Positions 4,401 through 15,270 are shown, numbered from the stretch's first letter. The stretch: DNA of 64,000 bases from an uncultured Desulfobacter sp. (GCA_963665095.1 OY762069.1:3168001-3232000); one strand, 5' to 3'. The notes: a model not told the origin generated them from the letters alone. Program-made: numbers and translations.

Positions 4401-5594
4401 TTATTCTACAATTTCACCAACAACACCAGCGCCAACAGTACGGCCGCCTTCACGGATAGCAAAACGCAGCTCTTTTTCCATGGCGATGGGGTTAATCAGC
4501 TCAACGTTAATAGTTGCGTTATCACCAGGCATGATCATTTCAACGCCCTCATCCAATGTCAGAACACCTGTAATGTCAGTGGTTCTGAAAAAGAACTGGG
4601 GTCTGTAGCCAGTGAAGAAAGGAGTATGACGTCCGCCCTCTTCCTTGCTCAATGCATACATTTCAGCTTTGAACTTGGTATGAGGTGTAATGGTACCCGG
4701 CTTGCAAACAACCTGGCCGCGCTCAACCTGATCACGTTTGGTTCCTCTCAAAAGCAGGCCAACGTTATCACCAGCCTGACCCTCGTCCAGAAGTTTTCTA
4801 AACATCTCAACGCCGGTACAAACGGTTTTAGCAGTATCTCTGATCCCAACAATTTCGATTTCATCGCCGGTTTTAACAATACCACGCTCAATACGACCTG
4901 TTACAACAGTTCCTCGACCTGAAATAGAGAACACGTCTTCAATTGGCATCAGGAAGGGTTTGGCGGTATCTCTTTCGGGCTCCGGAACATACGAATCAAG
5001 AACATTAAGAAGCTCAAAAACTGGTTTGGCTTCTTCGGCATCGACATCGTCGCATTCAAGTGCTTTAAGGGCCGAACCACGGATGATGGGTGTTTCGTCA
5101 CCAGGGAATTCATAAGTATCTAGCAGTTCCTGTAGTTCCATTTCAACCAGCTCAATAAGCTCTTCATCATCAACCATGTCGCATTTGTTCAAAAACACAA
5201 CAATTTTGGGAACGCCGACCTGACGGGCAAGCAGAATGTGCTCACGAGTCTGAGGCATGGGACCGTCATCAGCAGACACAACAAGAATCGCGCCGTCCAT
5301 CTGAGCAGCACCGGTGATCATGTTTTTGATATAGTCAGCATGGCCCGGACAGTCAACATGTGCGTAGTGGCGCGCATCGGTTTCATATTCGACATGGGCA
5401 GTCGCGATGGTAATACCACGTTCTCTTTCTTCAGGCGCCTTGTCGATTTCATCAAAGGGAACATAGGTCCCCTGGCCCTTCAATCCGGCAAGCTTGGTGA
5501 TTGCCGCGGTCAGAGTAGTTTTCCCATGATCGATATGACCGATAGTACCAATGTTTACATGCGGTTTGGTCCGCTCAAATTTCTCCTTAGCCAT
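4401..5594 (-). CDS. tuf: Elongation factor Tu
   Basis: [22 protein letters not shown]-protein motifs; [13 protein letters not shown]. Confidence 0.99.
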
Positions 5595-5641
5595 CTTCTC
5601 TATTCCTCCTGTGGAATGTTTTCAAAGATATTTTTTAAATA

Positions 5642-6109
5642 TTACCACCTAAAATGAGCGAATGCTTTATTTGCTTCAGCCATTTTATGCGTATCTTCTT
5701 TCTTTTTGATTGCACCACCACGCTCGTTATAAGCATCCATCACCTCAGCAGCAAGCTTATTCGCAAAACCCTTTTCAGAACGGTTTCTGCTGAAGTTGAT
5801 AAGCCACCTGAAAGCCAAAGCCATCTGACGGCCGGGTTTAATATCTGTGGGCACCTGATAGGTTGACCCGCCAATCCTTCTAGACTTCACTTCAACAGAA
5901 GGCTTAATATTATCAATTGCCTTTTTAAACACATTCAATGCAGGCTCGCCAACTTTGTCTTCAGCGATCATCAATGCATTGGCCACTACTTTCCGGGCAG
6001 CATTTTTCTTGCCGTCTTTCATAACACAGTTGATAAACTTTGCTGCAAGTTTTTCTTCCTGTGTGGCATCCTTAATAAAACCTTCTTTAAACACTATTTT
6101 TTCTGCCAT
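5642..6109 (-). CDS. rpsG: 30S ribosomal protein S7 (divergent N-terminus)
   Basis: VEVKSRRIGGSTYQVP, MAEANKAFAHFRW. Confidence 0.97.
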   Translation of the reverse strand: MAEKIVFKEGFIKDATQEEKLAAKFINCVMKDGKKNAARKVVANALMIAEDKVGEPALNVFKKAIDNIKPSVEVKSRRIGGSTYQVPTDIKPGRQMALAFRWLINFSRNRSEKGFANKLAAEVMDAYNERGGAIKKKEDTHKMAEANKAFAHFRW

Positions 6110-6162
6110 CTCAAAAGTCCACCAAATTTATATTCCATTAAAATGAATACATATTCCTATGA

Positions 6163-6534
6163 TCACTTGGGACGCTTGGCTCCGTATTTCGAACGCCCCT
6201 GACGCCGATCATCCACACCCAGGGTATCCAGCGCACCCCTGACGATGTGATACCGCACACCTGGAAGGTCCTTTACCCTGCCACCCCTGACCAGAACAAC
6301 GGAGTGCTCCTGAAGATTATGCCCCATACCCGGGATATAGGCAGCGACTTCCATTCCGGTGGTCAAACGTACCCTAGCAACTTTACGCAGGGCTGAGTTC
6401 GGTTTTTTAGGAGTAGAAGTATAGACCCTGGTGCAAACACCTCGTTTTTGCGGACCACCCTTTAAAGCAGGTGTATTTACCTTCTTTTCAGATTTTTTTC
6501 TACCTTTTCTCACCAATTGATTAATGGTCGGCAT
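6163..6534 (-). CDS. rpsL: 30S ribosomal protein S12
   Basis: [29 protein letters not shown]; start moved to the ATG at 6534. Confidence 0.98.
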
Positions 6535-6593
6535 ATCTCTCCACACGCTCCTTCATCAAACGTAATAAGTCGTCATACACGACAAAATATTCA

Positions 6594-6639: not shown

Positions 6640-9600
6640 TTAGACTTCAGCCACCTGACCATACCCAACTTCAATATTCCGATATCCTGGAAAACCTGTA
6701 CCTGCAGGAATTAGGCGGCCCATTACAACGTTTTCTTTTAACCCCTTAAGGCTGTCATATTTCCCTTCAATTGCTGCGAGTGTTAAAACTTTAGTCGTCT
6801 CCTGGAAGGATGCTGCTGACAGAAAACTATCTGTAGATAAAGAGGCTTTGGTAATACCCAGAATGAGAGGCTCGCCTTTAGCAGGTTCACCACCCTCCAT
6901 AGCCACCTTTCGATTGGTTTCCTCAAACAAAATCCGGTCAACCTGTTCATCCGGAATGAAATTCGTATCTCCAGTGGAAACGACCTTTACCCTCCGCATC
7001 ATCTGTCGGATAACCACTTCGATGTGCTTGTCGTTGATGCGCACACCTTGAAGCCTGTATACTTCCTGCACCTCATCAACGAGGTATTTGGCCAGGGCAA
7101 CCTCACCTTTTATATTCATGATATCCTGGGGATTTGCAGACCCTGCAATCAAAGGATCGCCTGCCTTCACATAGTCTCCGTCATATACAGATACATGCTG
7201 TCCTTTAGGGATAGAATATTCTTTTGCCTCTCCGACATCAGAGGGTTTTATAATCACTTTCTGCCGCCCCTTAGTTCCTTTGGCGACAGAGACATAGCCG
7301 TCAATTTCCGTCAGTACTGCCGGATCTTTAGGCTTTCTCACCTCAAAAAGCTCAGCAACTCTTGGCAAACCGCCTGTGATATCCTTAGTTTTTGTGGTTG
7401 CCCTGGGCAACTTCGCGATAACATCGCCCGCCATTATTGCATCATCCTCATCCACCGTGAGAATCGCGTTTACCGGGAGATAATACCTGGCAGGAGTTTT
7501 TGAATTGGGCAGCTTTACGGCCTTTCCCTCTTTATCCTTAACCGTGATTCTTGGCCGAACCTCAATGTCCTTACTTTCAGTAATGGTTCGTGACACCTTG
7601 CCGGTAACCGGGTCTATCTGTTCCTGCACTGTATTGCCCACAAGAATATCTGCAAATCGGACCCGTCCAGATACTTCCGTTATAATTGGCGTGGTAAACG
7701 GATCCCATGAAGCAATAATATCTCCCGGCTCTATGGCCTGCCCGTCTTTCACATGCAAGGTTGCACCATAAATTACATTTTCTTTGGCACGCTCTCTGCC
7801 CTCTTCACCCACAATTGTGATACCACCACCTTTCCGGTTCATCACTATAACATCGCCTTGGGCAGAGGTGACCATCTGGATATCTTCATTAAATTTTAAA
7901 ATTCCACCTACTCGCGCCTTAATCTCTGCCACCTCAACTTTTCGGGAGGCTGTTCCGCCAATATGAAAGGTACGCATAGTCAACTGGGTTCCTGGCTCGC
8001 CAATAGACTGGGCTGCAACTATACCTATGGCTTGGCCAATCTCGACAGTAGCGCCATGGGCAAGGTCACGACCATAGCATCTTGAACAAACACCATGCTT
8101 TGAATTGCAGGTCAAAACCGATCTAATTTTAACCTTTTGAACGCCGGCCGCCTCGATTTTGGCGACATGCGTTTCATTAAGTTCCGTATCCGATGCTACA
8201 ATAAATTCATCTGAATAGGGATCCCGAATATCTTCCTGGGTTACCCTGCCAAGAATACGCTCTCCAAGGGTCTGGATGATCTCGCCACCTTCATACAGGG
8301 CTTCAACTTCAATGCCATTAATAGTCCCGCAATCCTTCTCAACAATAGTGCAATCCTGACCAACATCGGCGAGACGACGTGTTAAATACCCGGAATTTGC
8401 CGTTTTAAGGGCAGTATCTGCCAGGCCTTTACGAGCACCGTGAGTGGATATAAAATACTGAAGCACAGAAAGCCCCTCACGAAAGCATGCTGTGATCGGA
8501 TTTTCAATAATTTCCCCGGATGGCTTGGCCATAAGCCCACGCATACCAGCCAGCTGACGCATCTGATCTTTAGAACCACGGGCTCCCGAGTCAGCCATAA
8601 CATATACCGCATTAAGCACTTCCCTGGCGTCTGCACCATCTTTTCTGGGCGGATTTTTCATCACCTCCATCATGGCGTTGGCGATGTCATCCGTAGCCTG
8701 AGCCCAAATATCGACTACCTTGTTATATTTTTCTCCCTGGGTAATTAACCCTTCAGAATATTGATTTTTTATATCTTCAATATTTTTTTCGGCTTTGGCA
8801 ACAAGATCCCATTTGCTCTCTGGAATAATCATATCGTCTATACAGATTGACAGGCCGCCAAGGGTTGAATTTTTATACCCGATATCTTTTAGCCGATCTG
8901 ACAGGATTACGGTCTCTTTAAGGCCGATGTTCCTGTATGCATAGTCAATCAGTTTAACTATGGACCCTTTGTCCATCAGTTTGTTTACCAGGGAAAACGG
9001 TAGCGTAGAGTTCCTTTCGTCCACTTTAAAAATGGTATACTTTTCTCCCACCATCCGTATATCTGTGAACTGATCTTTTTTAAGGCCATACAGCTGTTCA
9101 ACAACCACATCAGAGACCTGAAAAATATTTTTAAATTCTTTCCTTGTCAAAACGCCGGTTTTACCACGGGTTTTCTTTATTTCCTCATCGCCATATTTTT
9201 CAAGAGCAGCATCAAAGTCTCCCCCGGCCTCCAACTCTTCAAGTGCCGCCTCTGCATCTTCATAGCTCTCGGTACGGATACGGCTCATGTCAAGAAGCAC
9301 ATCCCCAGGTATAGTCTCCCAAAGAAGAATCCGACCACAGGTGGTATCATAAATGACATCATCGATACGAACCTTAATTTTTGCATGAATATCCAGTGCC
9401 CCGTTATCAAAGGCATAACGGACCTCTTCAATGCTGGAAAAGGTTATCCCCTCTCCTTCCATACCTGATACCGCCCGAGTCATATAATAAATACCTAAAA
9501 CAATATCCTGGGTAGGCACGATAATAGGCTGACCATTGGCAGGAGAAAGAATATTATTTGTTGACAGCATCATAACCCGCGCTTCAAGCTGTGATTCCAG

Positions 9601-11022
9601 GGAAAGCGGCACATGGACCGCCATCTGGTCACCGTCAAAGTCAGCATTAAATGCAGGGCATACCAGTGGATGCAATTGGATGGCCTTGCCTTCAATCAGC
9701 ACTGGTTCGAACGCCTGAAATCCAAGCCGGTGAAGTGTCGGAGCCCTGTTAAGCATCACCGGATACTCCTTGACCACAGCCTCAAGTGCATCCCAAACCT
9801 CGGTCTCTTCGCGCTCAACCATTTTTTTGGCACTCTTTACTGTTGAAACAAGACCTTTTTGTTCAAGATAATTATAGATAAAGGGTTTAAACAGTTCCAG
9901 CGCCATTTTCTTGGGAATGCCGCACTGATGAAGCCGCAGTTCAGAGCCAACGGTAATAACGGTACGCCCGGAATAATCCACACGTTTTCCAAGAAGATTC
10001 TGACGGAAGCGCCCCTGCTTGCCCTTCAGCGTGTCAGACAACGATTTTAAGGGACGTTTGTTCGTACCTGTCACAACACGGCCATGACGCCCATTGTCAA
10101 AAAGTACATCCACAGCTTCCTGCAACATCCGCTTTTCATTTCTGACAATAATATCAGGTGCATTAAGATCAACCAGTCGCTTAAGGCGGTTGTTGCGATT
10201 AAGTACTCGGCGATACAGATCGTTCAAATCGGAGGTGGCAAATCGCCCCCCCTCAAGAGGAACTAAAGGTCGCAAATCCGGCGGCAAAATTGGGCAAGCA
10301 GTTAAAATCATTCTGGAAGGTTCAATACCTGATGTCAGAAACGCGTCTATCACCTTCATACGTTTGGCCATTTTCTGCTGTTTAGCCTGCGATTTGGTCA
10401 GGCTGATCTCTTCTTTAAGCTCATCATGGACCGCCTGAAGATCTATTTCCTCTAACAGTATCAAAATGGCTTCCGCACCGATTCCGGCGACAAAACTTTC
10501 TTCACCAAATGCTTCGATGGCTTCATAATATTGATCATCTGACAGCAGTTGCATTTTTTTTAACCCCGTATCCTTAGGGTCGATCACAATATATGAATCA
10601 AAATACAACACCTTTTCAAGATTTTTTAAGGTCAGATCAAGCACATTGCCGATCTTAGAAGGCAGGCTTTTAAGAAACCAAATATGAGAAACTGGAGAGG
10701 CCAGTTCAATGTGGGCCATACGCTCACGCCGAACCTTGGACTGAATCACCTCAACACCACATTTTTCGCAAACCACACCCCGGTGCTTCATGCGTTTGTA
10801 TTTACCGCAGTTGCACTCATAATCCTTGGTCGGCCCAAAAACCTTAGCGCAGAATAGACCATCACGTTCCGGCTTAAACGTTCGATAATTTATAGTCTCA
10901 GGTTTTTTTATCTCTCCGTAGGACCATTCTCTTATCTGATCTGAAGATGCCAGGCTGATCTGAACGCCCTGGTAATTTTGGGGGTCTTTGGGTTTTGCGA
11001 AGAAATCATAAATATTGTCCAA
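6640..11022 (-). CDS. rpoC: RNA polymerase beta-prime subunit with ~99-aa lineage insertion
   Basis: [12 protein letters not shown] catalytic motif, Zn-finger Cys motifs, 1460 aa; TTG start. Confidence 0.99.
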
Positions 11023-11032
11023 TGTCTTCTCC

Positions 11033-14000
11033 TTATTTGCTGCCTTCTATAAGATTCATATCCAGCCCCAGAGCGTTGAGCTCTTTAATCAGAACCCTGA
11101 AAGATTCGGGCATTCCAGGTTCAAGGACGTTCTGGCCTTTTACAATTTTCTCATACATACGGGTCCTACCAGTCATATCATCAGATTTCACCGTCAAGAA
11201 CTCCTGAAGTGCATGAGCCGCACCATAAGCTTCCATGGCCCAAACTTCCATTTCACCCAGTCTCTGGCCGCCAAACTGGGCCTTACCACCCAGAGGTTGC
11301 TGAGTGACCAAAGAATACGGCCCGATGGATCTGGCATGAAGTTTGTCATCGACCAGATGGTGGAGCTTAAGCATGTACATGGTGCCCACTGTAACCGGCT
11401 TGTCAAAAGGCCTTCCGGTACGGCCGTCATAGAGAACGGACTGGCCTGAAGGGTCACTGTCTGACATCTCAATCAGCTCCTTGATCTCTTCCTCGGTCGC
11501 CCCGTCAAAAACAGGTGTAGCAGTGTGTACGCCTTTTCTGTAAAGCGTGGCAAATTCCACCAGCTTTTCTTCATCCATGGCGTCAATATCACGAACAATA
11601 ACATCGTCAACCAAACCTTCTCGCTGCTTCCGGGTCAGGGAAAATACCTGCTTCACTTTATCCCGCAACGCATCAAGCCGCTTTTCTTCCAGCATGTCAT
11701 CAATCTGCTGCCCCAGTGCATAAGCAGCACGTCCCAGATGAATCTCAAGGATCTGACCGACATTCATACGGGAGGGAACACCCAAGGGGTTCAGTACCAT
11801 ATCAACAGGACGGCCGTCTGCAAAATAAGGAAGGTCTTCAACCCTTAAAATTCTGGACACAACACCCTTATTTCCGTGCCGGCCGGCCATTTTGTCACCA
11901 ACGGAAAGCACCCGTTCCATTGCAACGGAAATTTTGATTAACTTTAGAACACCCGGCGGCAGATCATCGCCTTTTTCAAATCTTGATACCTGACGGTTGA
12001 AATGCTCCCTGGCCTTTGTAATCTGGTCCTGAGCCTGCTCCAGTATCACCTGAACTTTCTCAGTTAGTACGGCATCTTCAACGGCGACATTCACCAGAAC
12101 TGAAATCGGTACTTTGGCAAATAGCCCAGTCGTTACTTTTGTGCCAGCTTGAGCCAAAACTTTGCCATTACGATCCAGATCACTGAGAAGTTCATGTCCG
12201 CTAAGCAGAGTCTCCACTTTTTCTCGACCAACTTCTGAAATAATCTTTATTTCATCATCCCGGTCTTTTTCAAAACGCTCAATCTCTTCGTCCTCTATTT
12301 GCCGAGTTCTGTCGTCCTTAGGCAGACCACGCCGTGAGAACACCTTGGCATCAATGACTTTTCCATGCACGCCGGGTGGCACACAAAGGGAGGTATCTTT
12401 TACGTCACCGGCCTTTTCACCAAAAATAGCCCGAAGCAATTTTTCTTCTGGAGAAAGTTGAGTTTCACCTTTAGGTGTAATTTTTCCAACCAGAATATCG
12501 CCAGGTTTAACCTCGGCACCTAAGCGTATAATCCCGCTGTCATCCAGATTTTTTAATGCCTCTTCTCCTACATTGGGAATATCCCGGGTAATCTCCTCCT
12601 TACCCAGTTTGGTGTCACGGGCCAGAACTTCAAATTCCTCAACATGAACCGAAGTGTAGACCCCGTCCTTAACCAGGCGCTCAGACACCAAAATGGAATC
12701 CTCATAATTGTACCCGTCCCAGGGCATGAAGGCAACGGTGACATTTTTTCCAAGCGCCAGCTCACCCAGTTCTGTTGATGGGCCGTCTGCTATGACTTGC
12801 CCCTTTTTAACATACTCATTTTTTTCAACAATGGGCCTGTGGTTAAAGCAGGTGTTCTGGTTGGAACGGACAAATTTGGTGCAGTTATATATAGATACAG
12901 CTTTGGTAAATTTAGGATCCTCACTGTCATCATTCCGAACAACGATACGTTTAGAATCCACGTCCACAACCACCCCGTCACATTCGGCAACAATGGTAAC
13001 ACCGGAATCTCGGGCCACAACCGCTTCCATTCCTGTTCCCACCAGCGGTGCTTCACTCTGGATCAGTGGTACAGCCTGACGTTGCATGTTAGAGCCCATC
13101 AGTGCCCTGTTGGCATCATCATTTTCAAGAAACGGAATCAGGGAAGCAGATACCGATACCAGCTGATTTGGGGACACATCCATAAACTTAATCTCTTCAG
13201 GGGCCACCATTTCAAATTCACCGGCCACCCTGGCAGAGACTGTGGGATTAACAAAATTACCGTCCGCATCAAGAGGTGCGTTGGCCTGAGCAATGGGATG
13301 ATCCTTTTCCTCAAAGGCACTTAAATGCTGAATTTTTTTACTTGCATTGCCTTCATTTACTAACCGGAACGGGGTCTCAATAAATCCGAAATCATTCACC
13401 CTGGCGTAAGTACATAAGGAGACAATCAGCCCAATGTTAGGACCTTCAGGGGTCTCAATTGGGCAAATTCTTCCGTAATGGGAGGGATGAACGTCACGTA
13501 CCTCAAACCCCGCGCGTTCACGAGTCAAACCGCCGGGACCCAATGCTGACAAACGCCGCTTATGGGTAGTTTCAGATAAAGGATTCGTCTGGTCCATGAA
13601 CTGCGACAATTGCGAGGTGCCAAAAAATTCCCTTACTACAGCGGAAACAGGTTTAGGATTGATCAGATCATGGGGCATCATGGCATCCACTTCTTGCATA
13701 CTCATCTTTTCCTTGATGGCACGTTCCATGCGTACAAGGCCAATGCGGTAGTGGTTTTCCAAAAGTTCACCGACGGCTCTAACCCTGCGGTTGCCAAGGT
13801 GATCAATGTCGTCAACCTGCCCCTGGGTATCTTTGAGTTCAATAAGGGTAGCAGCAGTCAGGAGCACATCCTCTTTTCTCAAAGTTTTTACATCAATTTT
13901 TGTATTAACCCCAAGGCGATGATTCATTTTCAGGCGGCCCACCTTTGATAAATCATAATACGCCTGGCGAAAAAACAAATGGTCAATGAAATCCTGGGCG

Positions 14001-15160
14001 ACTTCAATGGTTGCAGGATTACCAGGCCGTAACCGCCTGTAGATATCCATTAAAGCTTCTTCTTTGGACTCAATCTTATCAGACACCAGGGTCTTTCTCA
14101 TGGAATCTGAACTACGGGAGTCCACATAAAGAATCTGAAATTCATTGATTTGATTTTCTTCAAGCAACTCAAAAGTGTCTTCAGCAATGGTGTCACCGGC
14201 TTTAAACAGAAGTTTTCCCTCATCCCCGATGACGTAGCTTGTAGCAAACCCTTTACCAATAAGCTCTTCATCAGATATAGGAATAAAATCTAAATTTTCA
14301 TCTGCAAGTTGTTTCAATGCTCTTTTAGTAAAAATTCTGCCGGCTTTAACTACAACCTCGCCAGACACAGGGGATTTAATATCATAGCCCGCCCTTTGAC
14401 GGACAAGGTTACCCGGAATGAACTCCCTAAAAAACGAACCGTTCTTGCGGATAATTGTTTCCTTGGTATAGAAAAAATCCAGAATATCTTCACCAGTATA
14501 TCCAAAAGCTTTAAATAGGATGGACACAGGAAATTTACGCCGACGATCGATGCGGATGTATACTATATCTTTTGCATCAATCTCCATGTCAATCCATGAC
14601 CCGCGCACAGGAATAATTCGGGCATTGTATATAATCTTGCCCGTGGAGTAATTTTTCCCTTTGTCATGATCAAAAAAAACACCCGAAGACCGGTGCAACT
14701 GGGATACCACCGCACGTTCCGTTCCGTTGATAATAAAGGTCCCTCTTGGGGTCATCAACGGAATGGTGCCAAAATAAATCTCCTGTTCTTTAATGTCCCT
14801 GATGGTGGACACGTCTGTGTCCTTATCATGGTCATAGACGACAAGCCGAACCCTGATGTTAACCGGAATGTCATAGGTCATTCCACGGCTGATGCATTCC
14901 TGCATGGAATGCTTGGTTTCCCCAAAGGAATAGGAGACGTATTCAAGGGATGAGGTATCTGTAAAATCCTTGATGGGAAATACAGATTTAAAAACAGCAT
15001 GCAACCCCTTCTCCTCTCTGTCCTGAGGAGGGACGTCCCTTTGAAGGAACCCTTCAAAGGAATCCCTTTGCATCCCGATCAGATCCGGGATATCTATAAT
15101 TTTTCGTTTACTGCCAAACTCTTTTCTAATACGCTTGTTCGTCAAAAGACTTCCGGTCAT
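11033..15160 (-). CDS. rpoB: RNA polymerase beta subunit
   Basis: [34 protein letters not shown]; start placed at ATG 15160 behind GGAG. Confidence 0.99.
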
Positions 15161-15270
15161 GATATCTCCCAATGTGAGTTTTTCCAACCGTAAAAGCGGA
15201 GACATGGCACTGGCCTTGCCCCCGCATATAGTTTGTGCACAAACAGCATGTACCGATCAGCTATGCAAAA

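Follow-up and report, generated by a model that had tools for sequence, protein, structure and literature searches.

A parvulin-fold domain inserted in the RNA polymerase β' subunit of Desulfobacterales

Lineage-specific insertions shape the regulation of bacterial RNA polymerase, E. coli SI3 being an example, and the rpoC gene of an uncultured Desulfobacter sp. raises the question of what an additional stretch of some 99 residues in its β' subunit is, how old it is and what it might do there. We analyzed a 64,000-nucleotide stretch of this organism's DNA (GCA_963665095.1 OY762069.1:3168001-3232000), which is referred to here as the window and derives from a complete genome that consists of a single 6.9-Mb contig. 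The rpoC gene that hosts the insert was located from the list of open reading frames (ORFs) and their translations at 6640..11022 on the minus strand; it begins with TTG and encodes a β' subunit of 1460 aa in which Pfam RNA_pol_Rpb1 domains 1-5 are all matched (E values from 5e-79 to 5e-19). The third of these (pore 1), assigned by Pfam to residues 490-731, is split by the insert. A previous sequence-only reading of the window had described about 99 extra residues between segments that are contiguous in E. coli, and that observation holds as it was written: residues 574-672 (99 aa) are encoded exactly by 9007..9303, and all of the protein strings that were quoted are found, with only the strand, minus, having to be supplied.

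The site of insertion is sharply defined by its flanks. Upstream of the domain lie 11 conserved residues (563-573, encoded by 9304..9336 on the minus strand) that are equivalent to E. coli β' 574-584, and downstream lies the conserved sequence TLPFSLVN (residues 673-680, 8983..9006, minus strand), which is equivalent to E. coli L587-N593 and runs into a helix that carries the K598 equivalent (K685) and residues of site 1 for guanosine tetraphosphate (ppGpp). When the window protein was compared by BLASTP with RpoC from the annotated E. coli record, the E. coli flanks were found to be ...GRAILWMIVP584 and L587PYSIVN..., which K585-G586 alone separate; in the window, 99-100 residues take the place of these two, a net insertion of ~97-99 residues. 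The K598 equivalent comes 12 residues after the insertion point, and in the same alignment, read by eye, the equivalents of K598, K615, I619 and D622 are all kept. In E. coli, K598 and K599 of β' are 6-10 Å from DksA and stand at the head of an α-helix whose other end, K615, lies in ppGpp site 1, where β' meets ω (PMC7676912). In the domain scheme given in Table 2 of PMC11515920, the site lies where the bacteria-specific β' domain bD4 meets the latter half of the universal domain uD3. Because of its position along the chain, the domain is predicted to project from the pore-1 region of the polymerase surface, near the secondary channel.

To establish what the insert is, family profiles and solved structures were searched with the window sequence and with its orthologs. 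Taken singly, the window sequence gives a borderline match to the parvulin families: the insert alone scores 27.1 bits against Pfam Rotamase_2 (PF13145), for which the cut-off is 27.0 (E = 7.8e-6), and 21.6 bits against Rotamase (PF00639), for which the cut-off is 21.7, and a longer piece of the window lowers the Rotamase_2 score to 26.8 bits. A search of the PDB with this single sequence is likewise weak, its top row being an ABC-transporter binding protein (E = 0.018) followed by parvulins at E values of 0.03-0.5. Identity as a parvulin is nonetheless settled, because the orthologs match the family profiles: among 14 inserts drawn from different families, Rotamase is matched by 11 (best E = 2.7e-12), Rotamase_2 by 9 and Rotamase_3 (PF13616) by 8. 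A profile built from these 14 inserts and their flanks retrieves PrsA, SurA and other parvulins from the PDB (best E = 2.1e-9), and a profile of 99 orthologous inserts without flanks matches 21 distinct solved sequences at E ≤ 1e-5, all of them parvulins. The top match of the latter is the peptidyl-prolyl cis-trans isomerase (PPIase) domain of B. subtilis PrsA (1zk6; E = 4.4e-15), which covers profile positions 6-91 of 99, and SurA is found at E = 8e-13. The rotamase pattern that had been noticed in the insert is therefore a likeness beyond chance.

The predicted structure is that of a parvulin as well. AlphaFold2 run on the alignment of 99 sequences yielded a model with a predicted local distance difference test (pLDDT) value of 87.7 and a predicted TM-score (pTM) of 0.73, in which strands span insert residues 3-11, 48-52, 83-85 and 88-98 and helices span residues 14-25, 30-37, 40-45, 54-61 and 65-72. 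The resulting order of elements, β-α-α-α-β-α-α-β-β, is that of the parvulin fold (β-α-α-α-β-α-(α)-β-β), with its four-stranded sheet. When this model was compared with the PDB using Foldseek, one of the checks that the sequence-only reading had called for, all 50 of the 50 listed rows were parvulin domains, each with a probability of 1.00 and query TM-scores (TMq) of 0.62-0.79; they include YacD, BB0108, PrsA, Par14, PpiD, SurA, Pin1 and NmPin. An initial model that was computed from the 14 sequences with flanks (pLDDT 68.7) gave the same list of parvulins and has been superseded by the 99-sequence model. No WW domain was found in the Pfam scan, and the insert is a single domain of 99 residues that is directly bounded by β' sequence. 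Both homology to parvulins and the parvulin fold of the insert are thus demonstrated.

The domain is restricted to one order of bacteria. The clade that carries it was identified as the Desulfobacterales from the source names of close proteins (Desulfobacter postgatei, Desulfotignum, Desulfobacula, Desulfobacterium and Desulfamplus). In a first draw, a 117-residue piece found matches in 22 of 24 other genomes of the genus and in 12 of 16 other families. For the order as a whole, a 351-residue query spanning the site was used, and it found an rpoC match in 117 of 121 genomes, ~112 of which carry the insert (counted from rows, 105 have a match that is continuous across the insert and 7 have matches in pieces that cover the insert positions). 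No insert is present in genomes G031, G100, G088 and G044, and in G064 (L103, G064:C40:53671-54498) the site holds a 24-residue acidic stretch, apparently what a partial deletion has left of the domain. A draw at the level of the class held the same order only and added one genome, G150, with no further information on distribution; in G150 (L107, G150:C14:23698-24456) the site holds six residues, whereas its congeners G046, G120 and G149 (L108, L109 and L045) have the full domain. G150 represents a clean natural loss within one genus and is suited to comparative work. The comparison of RpoC across the phylum, which had been proposed along with the first observation, found no match spanning the site in any of the 143 genomes outside the order that match the query, among the matches listed, and four outgroups that were fetched have 0-4 residues at the site. 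Of the 60 solved β' sequences listed at E ≤ 1e-20, not one has a match that runs through the insert: their best stretches end at query position ≤128, and two printed alignments resume at 224-225.

To place gains and losses, a quick maximum-likelihood tree was computed from 247 kept columns of the flanks, with the insert columns removed; its forks carry SH-aLRT support only, and many of them are open. Genomes G031 and G100 are at the unresolved base of the order, a position compatible with divergence before the domain was gained. G088, G044, G150 and G064 are nested inside the insert-bearing clade (support 98 and 90), which implies at least three whole losses and one partial deletion. The length of the insert is exactly 99 residues in 77 of 110 cases, and several lineages reach 107-128 residues through secondary insertions of 8-29 residues inside the domain (L101, L102, L126, L092, L098, L114, L028 and L115). 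These occur mostly after the first helices, some are acidic or of low complexity, and genera of the window's own family are among those that have them. Relative to the window's insert, the orthologous inserts have a median identity of 26%, as compared to 67% for the flanks, and the G+C content of the insert (0.43) is close to that of the remainder of the gene (0.46); for these reasons the insert is old and fast-evolving, not a recent arrival.

Parvulins have a catalytic tetrad of the form His - Cys/Asp - Thr/Ser - His, as worked out on Pin1 and Par14, and its fate was followed by comparing 110 inserts column by column, 21 from the window's family and 89 from other families. Alignment to PrsA and Par14 makes insert position 8 the first histidine and position 90 the second, whereas position 40 corresponds to the PrsA aspartate by loop spacing and is followed by a conserved Asp-Lys pair at positions 42-43. 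In the window, the first histidine is replaced by R581 (9280..9282, minus strand; the column holds H in 66 and R in 25 of the 110 sequences) and the second by T663 (9034..9036, minus strand; H in 71 and T in 14). The Cys/Asp loop reads E613-E614-I615 (9178..9186, minus strand), with glutamate at position 40 where most orthologs have serine and with I615 at position 42, which is aspartate in 61 of 110 orthologs; the Thr/Ser position of the tetrad is occupied by V658. All 11 sequences of the window's genus read R-I-V-T at these columns, and the 10 sequences from other genera of its family all lack His, Asp and His. Across the family, 21 of 21 sequences are therefore without both histidines and the conserved aspartate, having R at the first histidine, variable residues at the aspartate, and T, N or another residue at the second histidine.

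The other families present a different picture. Both histidines are retained in 59 of the 89 inserts, 48 of which also retain Asp42, and 8 are without all three residues; outside the window's family, the conservation of the second histidine (0.80), the first histidine (0.74) and Asp42 (0.69) exceeds the column mean of 0.47. Each of the six earliest-branching insert-bearing lineages has both histidines, and five of the six also have Asp42. The tree, though poorly resolved, requires at least 23 changes of the both-His state, throughout which the domain itself is retained. Because the earliest-branching lineages all keep both histidines, the captured domain began with an intact pair; decay has followed repeatedly, and one such event falls at the base of the window's family. 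The sequence-only reading had described a captured PPIase, probably inactive, with both catalytic histidines replaced. Capture is supported by the profile and fold searches, and the loss of the histidines is seen in the window and throughout its family, but the inactivity that was deduced from these residues does not extend to the clade as a whole, given the families that retain the histidine pair or the full His-Asp-His set.

What seems to have been kept in the window's family is the region of the former substrate groove. The β2-α4 segment, 12 residues (625-636) encoded by 9115..9150 on the minus strand, is nearly invariant within the family by column conservation. It includes F630 and F634, which align with a Met and a Phe of Par14; both are invariant in the window's family and well conserved elsewhere (0.81 and 0.83). 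We take the Par14 residues to be part of the proline pocket, which is presumably formed by Leu, Met and Phe after the GxLG loop. Outside this segment, F92 of the insert is invariant. The fold and length of the insert are probably under selection, since the length of exactly 99 residues predominates, F92 does not vary and nearly all genomes of the order retain the domain in spite of its low sequence identity.

On balance, and with a lean rather than conviction, we favor the view that the domain in the window is a non-catalytic module near the secondary channel that binds or docks a peptide, because its fold and length seem to be selected, the catalytic residues are gone in this family and often decay elsewhere, and the former substrate groove appears to be conserved. 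In such a mechanism, a parvulin-fold domain of 99 residues, whose in-frame insertion separates the equivalents of E. coli P584 and L587, would act by binding instead of catalysis as a result of the replacement of its catalytic residues. It would be placed at the surface of the polymerase beside the secondary channel and near the K598-K615 helix, which in E. coli extends from the side of the channel that DksA contacts as far as ppGpp site 1. The groove, whose retention is suggested by the near invariance of F630, F634 and the rest of segment 625-636 in the family, would hold a peptide from a partner protein, candidates being secondary-channel factors such as GreA or one of five proteins of the DksA/TraR family, or else a stretch of the polymerase. 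A single GreA is encoded in the genome, together with five DksA/TraR zinc-finger ORFs of 126-170 aa that are above the Pfam cut-off.

Several considerations weigh against a binding module. Its candidate partners and the three-dimensional placement of the domain are proposals made from sequence only. The His, Asp and His columns are among the best conserved elsewhere, such that catalysis could matter in most of the order, with the window's family as a possible exception or as one whose domain has possibly taken on another function. Whole losses of the insert, at least three in number and one of them within a genus, indicate that it is dispensable in some backgrounds. In addition, 2 of the 24 other genomes of the same genus have no match to the insert, both of them fragmented assemblies.

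Among the alternatives, the one that survives best is a structural or neutral accretion without a ligand, in which the domain is a spacer or stabilizer of the pore-1 region that is kept since precise excision is rare; we consider it possible and would not be greatly surprised by it, though we do not expect it. The fast evolution of the insert relative to its flanks is what such an accretion would predict, as are the secondary insertions of 8-29 residues that several lineages tolerate, the clean losses (at least three), the reduction to 24 residues in one genome and the repeated decay of the catalytic residues. It accounts less readily for a length held at 99 aa in 77 of 110 inserts, for a fold that is kept across more than 80 family codes and ~112 of 117 genomes, and for the surface segment 625-636, which is not needed for the core and is nearly invariant in the family.

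A second alternative, which we regard as doubtful, is that the ancestor of the Desulfobacterales fused an active isomerase at the mouth of the secondary channel, that this enzyme is still working in the many families with His-Asp-His and that the window's family later switched to binding; the proline that it isomerizes would then belong to the polymerase, to a sigma factor or to a transcription factor. If true, such a fusion would be a bacterial, covalently tethered counterpart of the control of RNA polymerase II by Ess1/Pin1. More improbable is a third, in which the polymerase carries the domain as a tethered, functional prolyl isomerase or foldase, its substrates being β' and β during assembly (in cis) or sigma factors, transcription factors and nascent proteins (in trans). 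This alternative faces the replacement of the His, Asp and Thr/Ser positions in the window (R581, I615, V658 and T663) and in all 21 sequences of its family, and, in most orthologs, a serine at the residue aligned to the Asp of PrsA and the Cys of Pin1, the conserved aspartate coming two residues later. The paired histidines of parvulins are also reported to have a structural role, so that their retention is no proof of catalysis. The 48 of 89 inserts outside the family with His-Asp-His, the 59 with both histidines, the presence of the pair in all six earliest-branching lineages and the conservation of these columns well above the mean are nevertheless what a working enzyme would lead one to expect. 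Removal of six cytoplasmic PPIases from an E. coli strain leads to aggregation of RpoB and RpoC, and β and β' co-purify with PpiB; in that study the two subunits behave as PPIase clients (PMC7353009). Judged by its residues, a working isomerase is unlikely in the window's family and plausible in the families that retain the histidines. An artefact (a misassembly, an intein, a mobile element or foreign DNA acquired recently) can be dismissed almost entirely. Nothing favors it except the slightly lower G+C content of the insert, which is in frame and without stops in a complete single-contig genome, is found at this position in over 100 independent genomes, shows no intein or nuclease signature in Pfam and matches the rest of the gene in composition; conservation across independent assemblies refutes it.

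The closest relatives of the domain are the parvulin domains of PrsA, SurA and PpiD, which are homologous to it by profile, have the same fold and order of elements, and are of similar size, the insert likewise comprising ~90-100 residues. A copy without catalytic residues also has parallels: the parvulin domain of E. coli PpiD (2kgj), one of the Foldseek matches, is without them as the window's copy is, and so, we assume, is the first parvulin domain of SurA. The insert differs from all three in that it lies inside the cytoplasmic β' subunit rather than in a free-standing or envelope protein, in that its segment after the GxLG loop is 5-6 residues longer and in that, in the window, the His, Asp, Thr and His positions are all replaced. 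Another point of comparison is Ess1/Pin1, a separate, active and phospho-specific enzyme with a WW domain that acts on the Ser-Pro C-terminal repeats of RNA polymerase II. Both cases tie a parvulin-type domain to the largest subunit of a polymerase, but the insert is covalently within β' and, unlike Ess1/Pin1, is without a WW domain, a repeat substrate or (in this genome) catalytic residues. Pin1 ranks below PrsA and SurA in both the profile and the fold searches made with the insert.

As an insertion, the domain resembles the lineage-specific insertions of β and β', such as E. coli SI3 (β' In6, in the trigger loop) and the BEAN and HABAS classes described in the available sections of PMC11515920, in being of domain size, in frame and placed in a surface loop that universally conserved segments flank. 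Like them, it occurs in a single lineage, in which it has passed down vertically with occasional losses. It departs from the surveyed classes, as presented in the same sections, in its site and in having a parvulin fold instead of a barrel-sandwich hybrid (HABAS/SBHM) or BEAN/BBM2 fold. In its accessible portion, that survey of polymerase insertions treats only HABAS, BEAN and sLC, and neither the text nor the spreadsheet supplement, to the same extent, mentions parvulin, PPIase, rotamase or Desulfo; the insert is likewise not mentioned in the parts of PMC13114784 and PMC3417386 that were available. The sequence-only reading knew of no description of the insert, and none was found in our full-text literature searches, the coverage of which did not extend to the catalogues of Lane and Darst (2010) and Iyer et al. 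(2004); such older catalogues may list an unassigned insertion at this site. Surveyed insertions fall in very few fold classes, and a chaperone or isomerase fold in β', beside the helix that joins the secondary channel to ppGpp site 1, would be a new class of insert. The function of the domain is directly testable because the clade offers natural experiments, namely families with intact and with decayed active sites and clean natural deletions, one of them within a genus. The insert is also a sharp molecular marker for a large order of sulfate reducers.

To look for the source of the domain, the insert profile was compared with the other parvulin proteins of the genome, which are PpiD-like (638 aa), SurA-like (320 aa) and a PrsA-like lipoprotein (304 aa). 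An origin from a chaperone gene of the same genome gains no particular support, as the best of the matches reaches only E = 8.8e-9 (38 bits), an ordinary family-level similarity. A profile search of 1.84 billion representatives turned up no stand-alone protein that is especially close to the insert. Its seven best hits in a single stretch, which were fetched, are RpoC fragments of the same clade, and the best of the other hits are multi-parvulin proteins that score by the sum of several domains; this search, which showed no full-length RpoC at all, thus reveals neither a parvulin-bearing RpoC outside the order nor a close stand-alone donor.

In the window, the rpoB gene (11033-15205, minus strand) is adjacent to rpoC, and the two are followed on the minus strand by rpsL, rpsG, tuf, rpsJ and rplC. 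Within this series (window 4401-6546), rpsL occupies 6163-6546, rpsG 5642-6109 and tuf 4401-5594, all on the minus strand, and only ~47 bases separate rpsG from tuf; fusA, the usual occupant of the position between them in such an operon, is absent at this site in the window. Elsewhere in the genome, the five DksA/TraR ORFs are located at G000:C1 5715393, 5226491, 3855247, 578982 and 4871146, a large possible set of secondary-channel factors. Finally, the open frame that contains the rpoC match is 2433 aa long in G177:C159 and 2297 aa long in G309:C6, as compared to the usual 1360-1530 aa, and these long frames could reflect a β/β' fusion or another large insertion.

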